From: Escherichia coli
GTDB lineage: Bacteria > Pseudomonadota > Gammaproteobacteria > Enterobacterales > Enterobacteriaceae
Assembly: GCF_030013595.1 (NCBI RefSeq)
Contig: NZ_CP122768.1
DNA: 64,000 nt
Reading direction: 5' to 3' (one strand)
This document shows, piece by piece, positions 32,872-44,820 of this stretch (positions are counted from its first letter, which is position 1; each line of letters starts with the position of its first letter). The notes below the pieces were generated by a model. That model had not been told where the DNA came from. It was given only the letters and a program-made list of their open reading frames with translations, and ran no database searches. Both the position numbers and the translations under genes were made by a program.

Positions 32872-33690
32872 TCAGCGCATGCTCTCCAGCAGCGTTTCTG
32901 CCATCACCCACAATGCGCGATTGAGCTTAATGTCGGTGTCGATGCTGTGAATGGCCCGGGTGTGGATACGTTTTCCTCTGGCACTGCGACCGGAAATTCC
33001 GCCTTTCAGCATATTCTCCTGGATGGTCTGATATGCGCTCCACAGGTCCTTGCCGTAATCCTCCCTGCGTCGTGGTGTCAGAATGTCAGCAGTGGTGACG
33101 GGCTGATGTTCGTCACCATAACGGTAAGTCAGTGCCGCCTGCGCCAGTGCCTGGCGTGCCGGTGGCGGCAGGACCAGCGACTGCATGGCATCACGTTTCT
33201 CCTCAATCCGGTCAAACACGCCCACCACTTCGTAAGCCCCTTCAATAACTTTCTCCACCACGTTTCCCCGGTGCGGAACACGCACTTCCCCCAGAGACTG
33301 ACCACAGACGCAGCCGTTCTGGCAGACGAATCTGAAGTAACCCGGCAGCATCTGGTAGCTGGAGGTACCGTCATGGGAGTTGAGCAGAATAATTTCAGGG
33401 ACATGTTGTCCGGTTATCTCCCCGTCACGCCGCAGACGCAGCATGTGTTTTGTGTATTCCCGGCGACCCGGGTCACGCACACGTGTCTGGCAGGCGAAGA
33501 ATGGCTGAAAGCCTTCCCGCTGCAGACTTTCCAGTACGGTGATGGTGGGAATGTACGCATAGCGTTCACTGCGGGAGGTATGCCGGTCTTCTCCAAAAAT
33601 ACTGGGAACATAGTGCATCAGCTCTTCATGTGTCAGTGGACGTTCACGGCGTATCTGGTTTGTATAACCAAAACGACTGGCTAATCGCAT
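32872..33690 (-). CDS. DUF932-family protein (YafZ/YfjQ-like)
   Basis: 272 aa; family assignment from remembered similarity to CP4 prophage proteins. Confidence 0.65.
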   Translation of the reverse strand: MRLASRFGYTNQIRRERPLTHEELMHYVPSIFGEDRHTSRSERYAYIPTITVLESLQREGFQPFFACQTRVRDPGRREYTKHMLRLRRDGEITGQHVPEIILLNSHDGTSSYQMLPGYFRFVCQNGCVCGQSLGEVRVPHRGNVVEKVIEGAYEVVGVFDRIEEKRDAMQSLVLPPPARQALAQAALTYRYGDEHQPVTTADILTPRRREDYGKDLWSAYQTIQENMLKGGISGRSARGKRIHTRAIHSIDTDIKLNRALWVMAETLLESMR

Positions 33691-34100
33691 AATTGCTCCT
33701 TATGAATGATTAAGCGGTATAAATGAAAAAACCGCGTCTCCCGGAGAAGACGCGGCCTGATGGGTGAAATGAATGAGGTTTATTGTCCGGGAAGCCCTTC
33801 ACTGGTGAGCCACGCATTAAGTTGTTTGCCTGCATAGGGTTCAGAATTCCGGCAGCGCCAGCGTCGCTGACCTTCCGCGTTGCGGATAATCCGCCGGAAA
33901 TGCATTCCTGGATAAACACATTGCGGTAAGCTGTTATGACAGCAACTGTCTGTTTGCGTGAGAAAGGATCTTCGGAAAATAAAAGTAATGTACAGCCCGT
34001 CATGTATTTTCAGGTAAAAATAAAGCCCCTGCCATTATGGCAGAGGATTTATTTACATTTGATATTAATAACGCGCAGATAAGATACTATAATTCATACA

Positions 34101-34514
34101 TTAAATTTTGATTTCGTCAAGCCCGACAATCTTATGAATCGTATTGTCGTAAAGTTTAACGCCCGGTTTACCGTTTTTTAGGGTAACGAAACCGGCGGTG
34201 ATGTTGCCTTCACAACTTTGATTGTTGTTGTATTTGATGGTCTGGGCTTTACCGGTATAGAAATTAATTACGCCGTATAAACCATCCCAGCACGCTGTAC
34301 CCCCCATGGCGTGTACCAGACCGTATTGCATGTCTTTGGATGTGCCCAGGTATTCACAACCTCCGTCGATAGTATCAGTACCCTGACACCAGAATTCTGT
34401 ACCGTCAGTAACGTCAGTCAGGTTGGTCGGTAAAGGAACGGCATTGTTTGCTGATACATTAGCAGTAAAGAAACTGATAACTGCAATCATTAAAATAGTG
34501 ATGATATTTTTCAT
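34101..34514 (-). CDS. Small secreted cysteine-containing protein (signal peptide), function unknown
   Basis: MKNIITILMIAVISFFTANVSA signal, 4 Cys in mature part, terminator hairpin downstream (34021..34050). Confidence 0.5.
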   Translation of the reverse strand: MKNIITILMIAVISFFTANVSANNAVPLPTNLTDVTDGTEFWCQGTDTIDGGCEYLGTSKDMQYGLVHAMGGTACWDGLYGVINFYTGKAQTIKYNNNQSCEGNITAGFVTLKNGKPGVKLYDNTIHKIVGLDEIKI

Positions 34515-34783
34515 GATAAATACTCCATTGTTTCTGATGTTAAATAAAAGTATAAAAACTGTTTCTGCAATACTTATAATCCACTCGAGAGGTCAGGATT
34601 AACCCCCGACTTGTTTATTAAACACATACCTGAAGATATGACCTTCAACATGGTGATATATTTATACTATGTTTCTGACTGTCTCCTGAATCAAATAAAA
34701 TATATCCGTTCCATGATGAACATCATTTACCTGTTAAGAACACTAATAACCTGATTATTTAGCAAACTCTGCGAGAAAGAATA

Positions 34784-35323
34784 TCAGATCGTAAATAACA
34801 CCAGTATCAGCATAACCAGCCAGACCCAGAAATAAGCAGGTTTTTGCCCGAGGATCTTTGCCCGACGCCACAGATAAACCGGGATCAGCCATGCCAGCCA
34901 GCCAAATGCTGTGGTATCAACACCAGATTTACGGAGTTTTCGTTCATCCAGATATCCCAGAGCAATATTCAGAATCAGAGAGATAAACCAGTACTGGCCT
35001 TCGCTGACTGCATCATAAGCCCGTTCAAATGACATACCGTTCAGCCCGGCAGTCCACATCTCAAGTATGTACCCAATCAAAGGGGCAAATGCCAGCGTCC
35101 AGACAACGTCTCCGGGAATGCGGTGACCCGGAAGGGCCGGAGGAACTTCACTTTGTTTCAGTATTTCCGCCAGTGATGTGGCTGAAACTGGCTGCCATTC
35201 CAGCATGCCCTGTTGCCACACCAGTGTTGATGCATTCAGTTCACCACGCCGGATACGTTCGATAATATCTTCCTCTGTTACGTTATCATAACGTACACCA
35301 TTTTTTTCATAATGCCAGTTCAT
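34784..35323 (-). CDS. Membrane protein with soluble N-terminal domain, function unknown
   Basis: 179 aa, hydrophilic N-terminus (MNWHYEKNGVRYDNVTEEDIIERIRRGEL...) then 3-4 hydrophobic segments. Confidence 0.5.
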   Translation of the reverse strand: MNWHYEKNGVRYDNVTEEDIIERIRRGELNASTLVWQQGMLEWQPVSATSLAEILKQSEVPPALPGHRIPGDVVWTLAFAPLIGYILEMWTAGLNGMSFERAYDAVSEGQYWFISLILNIALGYLDERKLRKSGVDTTAFGWLAWLIPVYLWRRAKILGQKPAYFWVWLVMLILVLFTI

Positions 35324-35439
35324 CTGATTCTCCTGTTAATCATTCAGTTAATAAAACATGTGACATCCAAAACAAAAATATTTTTATGATATTCATTTTC
35401 ACTCACTGTATTAAATTAAACTGAGGTGTTTTACACCAC

Positions 35440-35905
35440 GTTATCAATTATTCCTGGAACCAGGTGTTCCAGCAGCTACCGTAGAATTTGTTACCCAAAG
35501 TCTTTTTCTCATTTTTGATATTTGCGGTATAGCTGTCGACTTTCTTACCGTTTACTAAAACGTCGAGCTTCGTGGCTTCACCGATAGCATCGATAAAGTA
35601 TACCCACGCATTCTTATTCATTCGTGTTCCGTCGACAGGTGGGGCCGAATACTTTTTACCGTTGATGATAAAAATAATATCAGAATCGTACTGATTTAGC
35701 GGGGTGGGGGTATGACCGTAAATCCACTCATATGTGGTAGCAAATTGTTGTCTTCTGGATTAATCGTGCAGTTAATAGAAACACTACCGACACTGAACAT
35801 ATCGGTGCCAGCAACACTGTTACGCTTCTACAATGCCGATTCTGCTTGTGCTACGGTTGTACTTACAGTTAAAACAACAGCTAAAAGAATGTTTAACAGT
35901 TTCAT
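35440..35905 (-). pseudogene. Disrupted gene for a small secreted protein (in-frame TAG after residue 25, then frameshift at G5TG5 tract)
   Basis: ATG at 35905 gives MKLLNILLAVVLTVSTTVAQAESAL*; downstream frames continue ...SVGSVSINCTINPEDNNLLPHMSGF... and ...YDSDIIFIINGKKYSAPPVDGTRMNKNAWVYFIDAIGEATKLDVLVNGKKVDSYT...SCWNTWFQE*. Confidence 0.35.
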
Positions 35906-36036
35906 GAGATTTCTCCCCAAAATTAAATAAATTAATCTTAACCATCATCCGGGTAATATATATCTGAAAATATTTTCAATAACACCAGATAAGAAAAACA
36001 CCACCACAGTGGCGGTGGCGTTTCTCCGGTGTGTCT

Positions 36037-37107
36037 TTATTTAATCCGGGCCATCGCGTTTCTCAGTGCCGAATCTGCACCTTCAGTTATCTCCTGGCTT
36101 TTCTGTAATACCGCCTCTGACCGGGTCAGTGCCTGACGCGCCGCCAGTGGTTTCCGGATATGCTCCATCGTCAGCATCGTGTCCTCGTAGCCCTGCTGAC
36201 GCCAGGCGTCGATATGTGCCGACGTGAAACTGAGCAGACCGCCACTGTTGCCACCATCACCTGCATGTTTCAGCCTTTTCCGGGGACGGATTTCAAGGAT
36301 TGTGGTGTCCGGAAAAGCCCGACGATCCCATAAAGAACCGTCACTCAGATGCGTCACAATCACCATATTGCATCCGGCATCCACCAGTGGCGTCACGGGA
36401 GTATTCCCCTGCCTGTTTCGCCATCCGCCCATCCCACCATCACCGTACATTGTTCCCTGAACCTCGCGGGGACGGAACAGCAGAGGCAGCGCGGCTGACG
36501 CCAGTAAAGCTTCTTTCTGCTGCCCGCGGGGCAGACTCTGGATATGCTGAAAAACGGCGTTTTTCGTGGTTCCGGCACCCAGTTCAGCACGAATGCAGTC
36601 AATAATATCCTGCATGCCTCCTTCTGTGGGGTACAGCGACACGTACAGCGGTAGCCCGTCAGCCAGAGCATCTGTATCAAGATAATGATCCATCAGCGCT
36701 GTCAGGGGCTCATCTGACAACAGCGGCTGAATCATCGGATTGTCGAACCCGTTGATTGTCGATATATGGCGAAAAAGCGTCGTAAGCAGTGCGCCCGCAC
36801 GTCCGGGGATCTGGCAGAGGTTCATGGCCTGAACCAGTTTTTTCAGCAATGAAAAGTAAACCGATCTGTTTACCGACAGAACCTGATTATTCCCCAGATG
36901 ATCCCAGAGCGCCTCCAGGCGTAAGGTGGCTTCTGACAGATCGGGAGAGGCCGCGATAATGGCACCATTGAGAGCCCCGATACTGGCTCCTGAGACCATA
37001 CTGATCTGTGCGCCGCACTCTGCCAGTGCCTTAACCACCCCCGCCTGATAAGCGCCCACCGCTCCGCCGCCGGACAGCACCAGCCCCGTTTGCATTTCTG
37101 TACTCAT
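36037..37107 (-). CDS. Patatin-like phospholipase
   Basis: GGGAVGAYQAG oxyanion motif, GASIG serine-lipase motif (GxSxG), YGDGG Asp motif; start overlaps upstream gene stop by 4 bp. Confidence 0.8.
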   Translation of the reverse strand: MSTEMQTGLVLSGGGAVGAYQAGVVKALAECGAQISMVSGASIGALNGAIIAASPDLSEATLRLEALWDHLGNNQVLSVNRSVYFSLLKKLVQAMNLCQIPGRAGALLTTLFRHISTINGFDNPMIQPLLSDEPLTALMDHYLDTDALADGLPLYVSLYPTEGGMQDIIDCIRAELGAGTTKNAVFQHIQSLPRGQQKEALLASAALPLLFRPREVQGTMYGDGGMGGWRNRQGNTPVTPLVDAGCNMVIVTHLSDGSLWDRRAFPDTTILEIRPRKRLKHAGDGGNSGGLLSFTSAHIDAWRQQGYEDTMLTMEHIRKPLAARQALTRSEAVLQKSQEITEGADSALRNAMARIK

Positions 37108-38009
37108 GCCTCTCCCTTCTGAAATATTTCATCAACCATACTTTCAGAGAGGCGTTCTGCAGAGCAGAGACGGGGCATACGAACCGGTAAGTGTTCTGCA
37201 GCCTGCGTGGTTGACCAGATCACAGGATGCCGCTCTTCACTGCACCAGTCCCCCAGCCAGTTAACCGCTTCATGCCATTCGTTATCAGCCTGTTCCCGGC
37301 GCTGACCACCAAGCCAGTCCAGTGTGTTCAGACGTACTGTTGCGCTACCGCCACTCTCCCGTGCCATCTGCGTTAATGCTTTATATCTGAGAATATCCAG
37401 TAACTGATTAACCTGGCCTGTTTCACCCTGACGAATCACATCACCAAACGCGCCCCAGCGAAGCTCTTCAAGCGCCACATAACAACGTCCGGCAGGGGAA
37501 AATGACGCGTATCGCCCGGCGCTCCACCACGAGAATATCTGCTCAAGATGTAACTGTGCCCGCTGAACCTGGTCAACACGGTGGAGTTTTTCCTCAAGAT
37601 GATTCAGTTTCTGATGAACCTGTTCTGCCAGAGTGAGTAACTGCTCCCGCGTGTCAGCCGAATAATGCGCCAGCCTGGCAGTATCACTGACCAGTGAACT
37701 GACCCTGTCGTTTACCCGGGTAATCGCGTAGTTTGTGGTGGCAAGTGACGTTGTCAGCTCCGTCAGCCAGCGCAGGGACGCCTCAACGCCCTGTGCAAGC
37801 GACGCATTGATGGCATTCTGCCGTGCAGCGCCTTCGCCGGTCAGCCCCTCTTTTAAACGCCGGAAGAACGTGCGCTCTCCGGCCGTGCGGATATGCTCCT
37901 GTGCAACATCGATTCCGTTTGCGAAATCAACCACAAATTTTTCAGGAAGACAGGTGAGTACCTGACATACCCGGTTATCAGCAATTTGTTGAATAAATGG
38001 TGAAGTCAC
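37104..38009 (-). CDS. Hypothetical protein (301 aa) between dynamin-like GTPase and patatin genes
   Basis: ORF overlaps both neighbours by 4 bp (ATGA), implying a coupled operon; no motif recognised. Confidence 0.6.
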   Translation of the reverse strand: MTSPFIQQIADNRVCQVLTCLPEKFVVDFANGIDVAQEHIRTAGERTFFRRLKEGLTGEGAARQNAINASLAQGVEASLRWLTELTTSLATTNYAITRVNDRVSSLVSDTARLAHYSADTREQLLTLAEQVHQKLNHLEEKLHRVDQVQRAQLHLEQIFSWWSAGRYASFSPAGRCYVALEELRWGAFGDVIRQGETGQVNQLLDILRYKALTQMARESGGSATVRLNTLDWLGGQRREQADNEWHEAVNWLGDWCSEERHPVIWSTTQAAEHLPVRMPRLCSAERLSESMVDEIFQKGEA

Positions 38010-40393
38010 AGCATTGTCTCCAGCTCTTCCCTCAGCGCCTTACTGTCAGTAATGAGCTCAGGAACCCTTTCATTTAATGCCTGAAGTCGCCCGGTAAGCC
38101 GTTCCTGCGCCTGCTGATCGCGTTTATGATCTTCAGAGCTCTGAATCAGCGTGTTACGCAGTTGTTCAACTTTCTCCCTGAATGCGCAGAAAAAGGCATC
38201 GATTTCCTGGCGGACGGGCTGGTTAATATCCTGCTCAATGGATGCCTGCAGCTCCCCGAAATATGCCCGGGTCAGTGACATAACTTCCTCTCTGGCCTTG
38301 TTGATATTGATCACGCTGCGACTCACATCCTCGTCATAGTTTTCCCAGCCCAGGTCACTGGTGCCAAACCATCGACAAACGGTTCCCCATACGCCACTCT
38401 GCCGACGGCGACGGGTGACGGTCTCCGTTCTTTCCTCCATAAGCGCACTCAGATTTATTTTTACCGCGAGCCGGGTCTGTAACTGGCTGACTGCCGGAAA
38501 ACTGATTTTTACGGTAAAGCCCTCATCCTCCAGGCGGGCATTGATGCGACCGGCAATGTTTTCTGTGGCGTACAGGGCCGTGCCACGAAAACCTGTTTCA
38601 ATCCCGCTGACGATTTTCTCCAGCTCAGGCCGGAACTGTGCTTCAGCCTCACGGTGCAGGCTGGTCACGGTCGATTCGATTTGCGTCATCAGTTCAAGGG
38701 CTGCCCTGCGATCACTGAATTTTATTTCGGGGCTGTCCGGATCAAAGTCCCGCATCCTGTCATGCTGATTTCCGGTTCCGAAAATATCGTGAAAGAAAGC
38801 GAATGCGTTTCTCTCCCGGGGCTGCGCTGAATTTTCTTCCTCCAGCATTTGCTGTTCTTTGCGTTTACCGCTTCTGAAATAGTCGTTCAGCTCCTCCTCC
38901 AGTGAGGCACAGACCTTCGTCAGTAATTCCCCGGTTTTGGTATTGATGTCCTCCATGGCCATTCTGACATCACCGGTCACCTGATTCTGACATTCCTCAA
39001 TCTCCTGGATATCCGCCAGCAGGCTGGTAATATGCGCCTGTAGTGACTGAATGCTTTGCTGCAGCCCCTGATGACGTAATGACAGATATTCGCTGACATT
39101 TTCTGCATTCTGCATCAGTTTTGCGGCGGCAGAGTCAACCGCCAGTGCCGCCGCTCTGGAATGGGAGCTCTGTATGACTTCCGTTATCAGTTGATCGATC
39201 AGAGATATATTCCAGAGTTTTTCTGCCTTTTTATTTACCTTAGTGCTGTCTTTCCAGTCGTCCTCTTCCACCATAGGTCCGAAAGCTTCCCTGATAAAAT
39301 CATCGACCCAGGCTTCATCAACCGGAAGCGCACCGTTTTTTCGTAACTCATGAAGCGCACGGTTAGCCAGGTACGCCTGACGTGATGAGCCGGGATAAAC
39401 GCGGGAGGCGGGCAGCACATCGCTGTTCAGCATTGCTGGCACCTTCTGGCGTACGGCATCCGCACCATCACCATTGCGATCTTTTTCATCGAATTTATTG
39501 ACCAGCACAAACAGACGACCGGCTGAGACGTCAGCAATGGCATTAAGCTCTTTACGAACCTCCTCATCGGCTTTCGAGTTCATCTGGGTGTAATCCATCA
39601 CCGCCAGCACCGCAGAGGCTTTCTGTAGTTGATCCCGCATCATCATTTCCATCTGTGGTTGTCCGGCTTCATTAGGGCCGGGGGTATCCAGCAGTGTGAG
39701 TGTTCCCTGACATGCATCCATTCCCACCAGGTGGCTGAACGCCACGTCGATCACCGGTAGTTTCTGCACTTCTGCGTATTCGTCAAAAGGAAATTCAGTC
39801 CCCATTGCCGCAGCAAGACGAACCAGGTCATTTAACGATGCCAGTCCGGTAAAGATTTCGTCTTCCCCGTGGTATTCATTTTTAAGCCAGACATCATCCG
39901 CCAGAATATCCAGTAGTTCGCGGGTATCCCCGGTTTGCTGCAGGGACTGTGCGACTTGCTGCCCTGCCGGGGTGGCGAGTTTTTCCTGCAGTGTGATTAA
40001 TAAATTGCGGACGGGCTGAATATGTTCCAGATGGAGGACCGGTTCCGTTTTTCCGGGAACGTGGCGGATCAATGTCGGTACCGAGGTCATGGGGCGGTTA
40101 CGGTTGGGCAGAATTTCCTGCCCCACAATGGCGTTGATGGTGGTTGATTTGCCCGCCTTCATCGTGCCGACCACAGCCAGCACCATCTCCCTGCGGGCGG
40201 TTTTGATTTGTTCGCCCTCCAGCTCCTCAATTCTTTTCAGCGCTTTCCGTTTATCAAAAAGCAGCCCGTTTTCGTTCTTACTGTCAGATAACACATCCGG
40301 CTCATCAACCATTTGCCGGAGCAGATTGATATTCAGTTGCAAAAGCCGGTCGGCTTCATCACAAAGCAGGGCGATGTTCTTTTCGTGCATCAT
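38006..40393 (-). CDS. Dynamin-family large GTPase (bacterial dynamin-like protein)
   Basis: 795 aa; N-terminal G-domain with P-loop GTMKAGKSTTINAIVG, DTPG-like G3 (LLDTPGPNE), long coiled-coil-like C-terminal region. Confidence 0.75.
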   Translation of the reverse strand: MMHEKNIALLCDEADRLLQLNINLLRQMVDEPDVLSDSKNENGLLFDKRKALKRIEELEGEQIKTARREMVLAVVGTMKAGKSTTINAIVGQEILPNRNRPMTSVPTLIRHVPGKTEPVLHLEHIQPVRNLLITLQEKLATPAGQQVAQSLQQTGDTRELLDILADDVWLKNEYHGEDEIFTGLASLNDLVRLAAAMGTEFPFDEYAEVQKLPVIDVAFSHLVGMDACQGTLTLLDTPGPNEAGQPQMEMMMRDQLQKASAVLAVMDYTQMNSKADEEVRKELNAIADVSAGRLFVLVNKFDEKDRNGDGADAVRQKVPAMLNSDVLPASRVYPGSSRQAYLANRALHELRKNGALPVDEAWVDDFIREAFGPMVEEDDWKDSTKVNKKAEKLWNISLIDQLITEVIQSSHSRAAALAVDSAAAKLMQNAENVSEYLSLRHQGLQQSIQSLQAHITSLLADIQEIEECQNQVTGDVRMAMEDINTKTGELLTKVCASLEEELNDYFRSGKRKEQQMLEEENSAQPRERNAFAFFHDIFGTGNQHDRMRDFDPDSPEIKFSDRRAALELMTQIESTVTSLHREAEAQFRPELEKIVSGIETGFRGTALYATENIAGRINARLEDEGFTVKISFPAVSQLQTRLAVKINLSALMEERTETVTRRRRQSGVWGTVCRWFGTSDLGWENYDEDVSRSVININKAREEVMSLTRAYFGELQASIEQDINQPVRQEIDAFFCAFREKVEQLRNTLIQSSEDHKRDQQAQERLTGRLQALNERVPELITDSKALREELETML

Positions 40394-43721: not shown

Positions 43722-44594
43722 TCAGAAGAAAATCCAGTTCCATACAGCGCGGGCAACAGAGACCACCGTGTCACGGACGGCACGCAGAACTGTGCGTGCA
43801 ACAGAGGCAACACAGACGCTCTCCACCGTGTCAAATATCCGGTCCACCGCACCGGTAAACTGTTCACGGGCCTGCCCCCGGACAGATTCCGTGCACAGCT
43901 CGTCCTGCAGGCGGGTCATCAGGGGACTGGCGGCATGGTCGGGAAGCGCTGTCATGAGCGCACTGACCAGCGTATCCAGTTCCCAGCCGGTACGGGCCGA
44001 TACGGCAACAACCGGATGTACGGGCCGGAACAGCCGGAATACCGCATCTGTTTTTTCGCGAATGTTCTGTTCCTGTGCGGGAGAAGGCTGAATACCTGCC
44101 ATATCCCATTCATGGCAGGGCTCTGTTTTGTCGGCCTGCGTCACCACAAACAGCACCTGCTGATGTCCCCGGTGCAGTATGTGTCGCCAGAAATACTCAT
44201 CCACAGACAGGGCACGGTCATCGGCTTTAATCAGCCACAGCACCAGGTCCAGTTCAGGCAGAATGTCACGGTACAGGGCTTCATACTCTGCATCCCTGTC
44301 CCGGCTCTCGCCCACCCCGGGCAGGTCAGTGATAACCATGCTGTGACCATGGCCACTCAGACGGAAGCGCCGCACTTCCCGGGTGCCGGCGTGAACATCA
44401 CTGACCGGGGTGACCTCCCCCTGAAACAGTGCATTACAGAGTGAGGATTTACCGGCCCCGCTTTTACCCATAATGCCAATCACGGGTTCGTGACTGGTGA
44501 GTTTGCGCAGATGTTCCAGGATGTGACGGGAAAGCGAGTAAGGCAGGGAGGAGAGCGGTTTTTCAATTGCCTCAATGGCATCAGACGGATTCAT
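43722..44594 (-). CDS. YeeP/YkfA/YfjP-family GTPase
   Basis: P-loop GIMGKSGAGKSSLCNALF; conserved position upstream of Ag43 gene as in CP4-44. Confidence 0.75.
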   Translation of the reverse strand: MNPSDAIEAIEKPLSSLPYSLSRHILEHLRKLTSHEPVIGIMGKSGAGKSSLCNALFQGEVTPVSDVHAGTREVRRFRLSGHGHSMVITDLPGVGESRDRDAEYEALYRDILPELDLVLWLIKADDRALSVDEYFWRHILHRGHQQVLFVVTQADKTEPCHEWDMAGIQPSPAQEQNIREKTDAVFRLFRPVHPVVAVSARTGWELDTLVSALMTALPDHAASPLMTRLQDELCTESVRGQAREQFTGAVDRIFDTVESVCVASVARTVLRAVRDTVVSVARAVWNWIFF

Positions 44595-44820
44595 ACATGT
44601 ATTCCCGGTGAAAAAAGACAAAACCCCGCGCACCGGAAAGGTGGCGGGGGATTCACAACGATAATATCTGTCTGAAATTATTTAGGATGCAGGTATCTTC
44701 TGATAATCATACATCCCGAATTTTGTTCTTAATAGGTAACCGTCTCATTTAAACCGTCTTTCGCCTCCCTTTCCTGTTTCCGATACTAATGTCCATTTTC
44801 GCAGTAAAGGGACATTTAAG

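Follow-up and report, generated by a model that had tools for sequence, protein, structure and literature searches.

The three minus-strand genes g3, g2 and g1, named here in 5' to 3' order, belong to a low-GC accessory cassette of about 2 kb in a CP4-57/CP4-44-type island inserted at tRNA-Ser in Escherichia coli (RefSeq assembly GCF_030013595.1, contig NZ_CP122768.1). All coordinates refer to a 64,000-nucleotide (nt) stretch of that contig, called the window. In this strain g3 is very probably a dead gene, the product of ordinary stepwise pseudogene decay and not a contingency switch, and the G4TG5 tract inside it, which a preliminary description made from the sequence had regarded as a possible slipped-strand hot spot, is ordinary coding sequence and not the lesion. 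The same description had recognized that small proteins, exported or membrane-bound, are encoded here in a cluster, and this part was supported: three open reading frames (ORFs) lie on the minus strand, coding for 137 amino acids (aa) in g1 and 179 aa in g2, both intact, while g3 is interrupted. The features of the region are the following:

34026..34046, minus strand: terminator-like hairpin with a T-run just 3' of g1, where the low-GC cassette ends (pattern scan)
34101..34514, minus strand: g1, intact, predicted exported protein of 137 aa (ORF; phrog_8968)
34515..34783, minus strand: AT-rich spacer of 269 bp between g2 and g1 (sequence comparison with Salmonella)
34784..35323, minus strand: g2, intact, predicted membrane protein of 179 aa (ORF; PF14237; hydropathy)
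35180-35317, minus strand: GYF_2/DUF4339 domain of g2, residues 3-48 (Pfam PF14237)
35448..35621, minus strand: remnant ORF of 57 aa, WP_001370911.1 (RefSeq annotation, translation)
35448..35905, minus strand: g3, YfjT/YkfB-family pseudogene with its ATG at 35905 and its final stop at 35448 (three-frame translation, intact alleles)
35701..35710, minus strand: G4TG5 tract, C5AC4 on the coding strand (sequence)
35732..35733, minus strand: site of the 1-bp (C) deletion of g3, between these two positions (allele alignments)
35828..35830, minus strand: TAG nonsense codon 26 of g3 (allele alignments)
35999..36017, minus strand: terminator-like hairpin after the patatin gene, at the upstream edge of the cassette (pattern scan)

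The lesions were located by aligning the g3 allele of the window with eight other alleles. FORC_029, O111:NM 14614 and TB4019 contain an uninterrupted gene of 152 aa with TGG (Trp) at codon 26, a residue at least 90% conserved among 58 family members, and the window copy, whose in-frame TAG had already been noticed, is thus a disrupted form of a gene that is intact elsewhere, contrary to the refuting case named in the preliminary description, that of a reading frame without any intact homologue. The frameshift is also real, although it does not coincide with the tract, as had been thought: a C was lost from CCGCA[C]TATG, between 35733 and 35732, in a non-repetitive and unique sequence 22 nt upstream of the tract within the gene. 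Positions 35701-35710 read GGGGTGGGGG, so the tract had been correctly placed, although it is G4TG5 and not the G5TG5 of its earlier label; the coding strand carries C5 and C4 with an A between them, read in the intact frame as ACC-CCC-ACC-CCG (Thr-Pro-Thr-Pro), and in the alignments the tract is base-for-base the same in intact and window-type alleles.

Of 5426 complete E. coli genomes, 76 have the g3 locus, and their hosts are varied. A 55-nt probe covering the tract (35676-35730) matched all 76, which fall into three discrete classes: the window type (36 genomes, 100% identical to the probe), with TAG and deletion; the FORC_029 type (36 genomes, 98.1%), with g3 intact in the three alleles read; and the TW10722 type (4 genomes, 94.5%), with TAG only. 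The intact status of the second class was read base by base in 3 of its 36 alleles and inferred from identity class and length in the other 33, which counts against taking the whole class as intact. Across the 76 genomes no difference in tract length was seen, every listed alignment being ungapped, and the lengths of the locus were only 520/521 or 522 nt because of the single C. Of the two features whose variation among strains had been proposed as a check, the TAG codon varies and the length of the tract does not. TAG-only alleles, of which a less degraded one is found in metagenome contigs too, indicate that the change from TGG to TAG came first and the 1-bp deletion second. The ratio of nonsynonymous to synonymous changes per site (pN/pS) is 1.18 when the two broken lineages are compared, as expected from neutral decay, and 0.4-0.66 between intact and broken alleles; one O157 allele has lost, in addition, a conserved Trp (W-to-R) in the C-terminal CWNTW motif.

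Two other explanations would leave g3 a working gene. If it were a contingency gene, turned ON and OFF by slipped-strand mispairing at G4TG5, its G-rich tract would be expected inside the ORF, as it is, and the shifted frame indeed ends just after the tract. The deleted C is not part of the tract, however, whose runs are just 5 and 4 bases long, and the switches of known contingency loci have longer runs than these. The OFF state rests on the TAG substitution as well, so slippage cannot reverse the loss of g3, and a pN/pS near 1.2 between broken lineages points to neutral decay. Taken together, the position of the lesion, the run length, the lack of tract polymorphism and the irreversible nonsense codon contradict a slipped-strand switch, which is considered extremely improbable. 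Hardly more credible is that g3 could be expressed by recoding, with read-through of the TAG and programmed frameshifting near CCC-CCA-CCC. A Pro-rich, slippery-looking sequence does lie near the frame change, and the Gln that a metagenome gene caller placed at the TAG yields a "protein" of 152 aa (P0002). At the DNA level this entry (L023, 75-533) carries TAG, and translation with table 11 fails to give the listed protein, so the Gln is an artefact of a caller that used a code reading TAG as sense, and a third state of g3 with Gln at codon 26 was rejected. To our knowledge there is no TAG reassignment in E. coli; the intact alleles need no recoding, and the substitutions of the broken lineages look neutral and include the loss of conserved residues. 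Database entries like P0002 can make pseudogenes appear intact.

The decaying gene has a family that can be named. In its intact form, g3 is assigned by sequence similarity to the exported proteins of the YfjT/YkfB family (PF27224), with 152 aa. Recent versions of the Prokaryotic Genome Annotation Pipeline name the intact allele "YfjT/YkfB family phage-associated protein", BLASTP aligns it to YfjT of K-12 with 31% identity over 142 aa (E 1e-21), and the representatives of its database cluster carry PF27224 in precomputed assignments. A profile search returned 252 relatives across Enterobacterales, many of them named YfjT or YkfB. A scan of NCBIfam release 20 with the three cassette proteins and those of the equivalent slot in strain D10 gave no usable model, and the YfjT/YkfB name does not come from a hidden Markov model (HMM) in that release. 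The N-terminus, MKLLNILLAVVLTVSTTVAQA followed by ES after the predicted cleavage site, has a charged start, a hydrophobic core and a small-x-small cleavage motif; here and in g1 signal peptides were called by rule and hydropathy, and in both proteins the only hydrophobic segment (Kyte-Doolittle) is the N-terminal one. An AlphaFold model built from 58 sequences (mean predicted local distance difference test, pLDDT, 86.5; predicted template modelling score, pTM, 0.80) combines a beta-sheet domain with a long helix and, at the C-terminus, two short ones; its only low-pLDDT part is at residues ~1-20, in line with the signal peptide proposed earlier for this gene. Searched against BFVD, it matched four phage proteins with template modelling (TM) scores of 0.5-0.6 and uninformative names.

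Once repaired, the g3 of the window is ~90% identical to the intact allele, and it has kept the signal peptide and the codons for Cys46 and Cys145. Trp26 is replaced by TAG and the uninterrupted frame of ~150 aa is absent; hence, this copy is a pseudogene member of YfjT/YkfB. The RefSeq "hypothetical protein" WP_001370911.1 is a C-terminal fragment of the dead gene. Intact alleles are themselves annotated inconsistently by RefSeq: those of FORC_029 and TB4019 start at the internal Met36 (117 aa, without signal peptide; L003, 4009-4362, in FORC_029), and that of O111 14614 is annotated at its full length of 152 aa (L008, 209-667).

The gene that follows, g2, is predicted to encode a membrane protein with an N-terminal cytoplasmic GYF_2 domain, in agreement with the soluble N-terminal domain attributed to it before. 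Residues 3-48 match GYF_2/DUF4339 (PF14237) with 45.8 bits against a cut-off of 25.8, over profile positions 1-46 of 50, and RefSeq calls the product "DUF4339 domain-containing protein". Hydropathy (Kyte-Doolittle) gives hydrophobic segments at about residues 73-90, 111-125, 139-152 and 163-179, that is, 2-4 segments in a C-terminal half that extends to residue 179. This half has no Pfam family, and its matches were phrog_12486 (E 5e-7) and, weakly, an Erwinia jumbo phage, nothing more.

The statement that the three genes have no recognizable family therefore holds for g1 alone, as profile scans found no Pfam or NCBIfam match for it. This protein is, as far as its sequence and model indicate, a Sec-exported, four-Cys, all-beta protein whose closest relatives, apart from those in enterobacterial islands, belong to a gene array of SPN3US-like jumbo phages. 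Its N-terminus, MKNIITILMIAVISFFTANVSA followed by NN, has a charged start, a hydrophobic core and a small-x-small motif, with a signal peptide predicted at residues 1-22 and cleavage between VSA and N. Both this signal and the four Cys were present in the preliminary description; the Cys are conserved, forming a framework common to all relatives found, and the AlphaFold2 model (pLDDT 80, all-beta) has its only low-pLDDT part at residues 1-23. g1 matches phrog_8968 (E 9e-37) over positions 1-134 of 135, and this full-length match, together with the signal peptide and the four Cys, places it among the phrog_8968/SPN3US gp084-like exported proteins. An exhaustive HMMER search of 1.84 billion proteins found only 18 representatives, and tblastn detected it in 53 phage records, with 38-43% identity over 99% of the query, the listed ones being nearly all jumbo phages of ~200-260 kb such as SPN3US, SEGD1, Asesino, phiEaH2 and Proteus phage 7. 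In SPN3US (165783-167492) and Asesino (167754-169486) the g1 homologue is the third gene of a conserved array of four signal-peptide genes located 5' of an SMC-domain gene, and two other genes of the array are distant paralogues of g1. The same arrangement is found on a 245-kb metagenome contig (L016, 5566-7237), and at least three of the four array families recur as cargo in CP4-57-type enterobacterial islands. A literature search returned nothing functional on the signal-peptide proteins of SPN3US.

The slot that holds g3-g2-g1 in the 76 E. coli genomes, delimited on one side by the patatin gene (or YfjR) and on the other by DUF905/DUF932, is variable in its contents and appears from comparative data to be a cassette site. 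It is empty in strain 2014C-3057; in D10 it contains three other signal-peptide genes, one of them a 44%-identical YfjT paralogue, and in K-12 it contains YpjK-YfjS-YfjT. The Salmonella slot (L018) has YfjS, a homologue of the second gene of the jumbo-phage array, GYF_2 and g1. In another enterobacterial island (L013), a 41%-identical g1 homologue lies between a gene for a YfjR-like WYL protein and DUF932, in company of a 312-aa exported protein with a sub-threshold match to the lysozyme inhibitor family Ivy, and on a short contig (L019) a pair of YfjT paralogues occurs together with a homologue of the array's first gene and with a gene related to the third one of D10. Since contents differ among strains, g3-g2-g1 represents one sample from a recurring and shuffled set of small exported proteins.

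g1 and g2 are probably functional and under purifying selection. Among E. coli alleles, which differ at up to ~9% of synonymous sites, pN/pS is 0.09-0.28 for g1 and 0.04-0.24 for g2, although the substitution counts are small (1-11 per comparison), making this a weak test. In Salmonella, the g1 counterpart has 87% identity to that of E. coli, and phmmer finds an orthologue of g2 with E 1.8e-108. Both genes could instead be passengers with no function at the level of the host, kept only because the cassette arrived recently, in line with their patchy distribution in 76 of 5426 genomes and with the decay of their neighbours (g3 and the DUF905 gene 3' of g1), but the low pN/pS across alleles, with the limit just given, and the conservation of both proteins in Salmonella make this improbable.

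As for what such proteins might do, it was considered that the exported proteins could be accessory factors of phage origin with a periplasmic or envelope role, perhaps by blocking the entry of phage or other foreign DNA, or by neutralizing enzymes that attack the envelope. This proposal, made because of the export signals, the non-core presence of these genes in phages and prophage-like elements and the cassette-like turnover, and of only these, is tentative, and a rather low probability is given to it. Several points weigh against it. The signal peptides were called by rule and hydropathy; tblastn with intact g3 found no homologue in 50,697 phage records, despite its "phage-associated" name; and a literature search returned nothing on the function of YfjT/YkfB. 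PADLOC-DB 2.0 gave no match for g1, g2 or intact g3, fold searches found no solved structure resembling the g1 or g3 model, and the sole inhibitor-like hint is the sub-threshold match to Ivy, in a neighbouring gene of a different island, outside the window. For that gene (L013, 6476-7414) the match has E 0.007 and scores 16.9 bits where the cut-off is 21; it spans a C-x5-C-G loop similar to CKPHDCG of Ivy. Sequence-profile searches of the PDB with the g1 and g3 families gave nothing meaningful, and the two models show no structural similarity to known inhibitors. A bolder version, to which a distinctly lower probability is given, is that the slot may be stocked from an interchangeable set of small exported proteins (YfjT, YfjS, the g1 family and no fewer than three other unnamed families, some of them common to the SPN3US-like array) that would serve as periplasmic exclusion or inhibitor factors, the loss of g3 in half of the carriers then reflecting a turnover of specificity.

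The idea, put forward earlier, that these proteins are toxin B-subunit-like or lectin-like virulence factors directed at host cells fits with their being small, exported and Cys-containing, and the island, which also carries the Cah adhesin, occurs in enterotoxigenic (ETEC) and enterohaemorrhagic (EHEC) strains. Intact g3 has, moreover, a sub-threshold Laminin_G_3/ConA-like match (E 0.014, 16 bits where the cut-off is 27.6), and one phage protein matched weakly in BFVD is labelled "putative adhesin". No Pfam or NCBIfam toxin or lectin family was matched at threshold, however, and neither the OB-type pentamer fold of B subunits nor a lectin fold was recovered, fold searches being without any toxin or lectin match. 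No gene resembling an A-subunit partner is present either, as the neighbours are the GYF_2 membrane protein and a cytoplasmic patatin/RdcB/dynamin operon. The families occur, furthermore, in non-virulence contexts, such as the cryptic prophage CP4-57 of K-12 and jumbo phages lytic on plant and enteric bacteria, and only the 76 complete E. coli genomes mentioned, of varied hosts, carry the cassette. A role as released toxins or lectins is therefore unlikely, and one as virulence factors for host cells very much so.

What this analysis corrects is a tempting misreading, as the G tract is not a switch. What it adds is the assignment of the broken ORF to YfjT/YkfB and the recognition of a 57-aa "hypothetical protein" of RefSeq as a pseudogene remnant. 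The feature itself is nothing unusual, being accessory cargo of an island in which one gene, of a family known but uncharacterized, is decaying, and it matters little as it stands; modestly useful is the link that the g1 family and the second family next to it in Salmonella provide between CP4-57-type cargo and the exported-protein array of SPN3US-like phages. Should periplasmic action against phages or envelope-targeting enzymes prove true, a function would be given to the long-standing y-genes yfjT and ykfB, and a new class of envelope-level defence cargo would be defined.

The cassette lies in a large mosaic island that adjoins tRNA-Ser, ghrA and ycdX in the RefSeq annotation, and the 2.2 kb at 33900-36100 match the porcine ETEC strain UMNK88 of E. 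coli, as well as nine other genomes among the matches listed, with 100% identity. GC content is 33-45% over about 33900-36000 and about 55% in both flanks. RefSeq gives, on the minus strand of the window, a Cah autotransporter, a dynamin-family protein, an RdcB/YjcZ-family protein and a patatin-like phospholipase before g3-g2-g1, and after them DUF905 remnants, DUF932, an antirestriction protein, JAB/RadC, DUF987, the YeeU/CbtA toxin-antitoxin pair, DUF5983, DUF957, DUF4942 and tRNA-Ser. The cassette slot is thus between the dynamin-RdcB-patatin operon and the DUF905/DUF932-antirestriction-RadC-CbeA/CbtA backbone, and the K-12 CP4-57 map shows the same backbone, that of a CP4-57/CP4-44-type element. 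The dynamin, RdcB/YjcZ and patatin trio (~36037-40390, minus strand) is a paralogue of crfC-yjcZ of K-12 plus an added phospholipase, and the patatin has only weak matches to the "phospholipase effector" of PADLOC (E 2.5e-4). Two other genes of the island look broken. The DUF905 gene just 3' of g1 (33710-34003, minus strand) has a 97-aa ORF that tracks the intact DUF905 of Salmonella only to "...AYRNVFI" and then differs; RefSeq flags its fragments as frameshifted or incomplete, and a "DUF905 family protein, frameshifted" is at the same place in FORC_029 and TW10722. The other one is a YeeP/YfjP-like GTPase gene beside cah (~43722-44595), annotated as frameshifted in UMNK88.

Each of the three genes has a Shine-Dalgarno sequence 7-10 nt 5' of its ATG. 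A promoter scan gave 7 sites, against 6.5 ± 2.7 in shuffled sequence, and with no excess over chance no promoter is claimed. Over 33000-36500, Rfam at E <= 1 gave a chance lncRNA (long non-coding RNA) match only. The spacer between g2 and g1 (34515-34783) is 81% identical between E. coli and Salmonella, compared with 80% for the coding sequence of g2 and 42% upstream of it; no Rfam match and no convincing small ORF were found in it, and a promoter, regulatory site or small RNA may be located there.

Among known systems, the contingency loci of Neisseria, Haemophilus and Campylobacter resemble g3 in that a G/C-rich run lies within the first third of a gene whose product is exported, but in g3 the runs are of 5 and 4 bases and of constant length in the 76 genomes, the lesion is outside the tract and a nonsense mutation is added to it. 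The T4 Sp and Imm proteins and the prophage Cor/Llp lipoproteins are phage-encoded periplasmic or membrane exclusion proteins; like those of the cassette they are small, exported or membrane-bound, and encoded outside the core replication and morphogenesis genes. The functional analogy is hypothetical, and no sequence or fold similarity to the cassette proteins was found. With GYF_2/DUF4339 proteins (PF14237), g2 shares the whole domain, covered by 46 N-terminal residues above the gathering score, and it departs from them in its hydrophobic C-terminal half, outside any Pfam family.

The SPN3US-like array (ACQ60_gp083-gp086 in SPN3US and gp201-gp204 in Asesino, all annotated "hypothetical protein"; phrog_8968) shares with g1 the four-Cys pattern of its third gene, and the Salmonella island has a homologue of the second array gene directly 5' of GYF_2 and g1; the phage genes form a fixed tandem of four in a lytic genome, whereas in the window one member is present as island cargo. 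Unlike YfjT and YkfB, the g3 of the window is a pseudogene of a divergent subfamily, with 26-44% identity to most members, and it adjoins a GYF_2 membrane protein and g1, whereas YfjT adjoins the YfjS lipoprotein. In its intact form the gene nevertheless resembles YfjT (CP4-57) and YkfB (CP4-6) of K-12 in its size of ~150-155 aa with an N-terminal signal peptide, in the conserved Trp after the cleavage site, the NCT-x-NP motif and the C-terminal Cys, and in its place, as all three belong to the same kind of island and to the same slot, 5' of the DUF932/antirestriction/RadC backbone.

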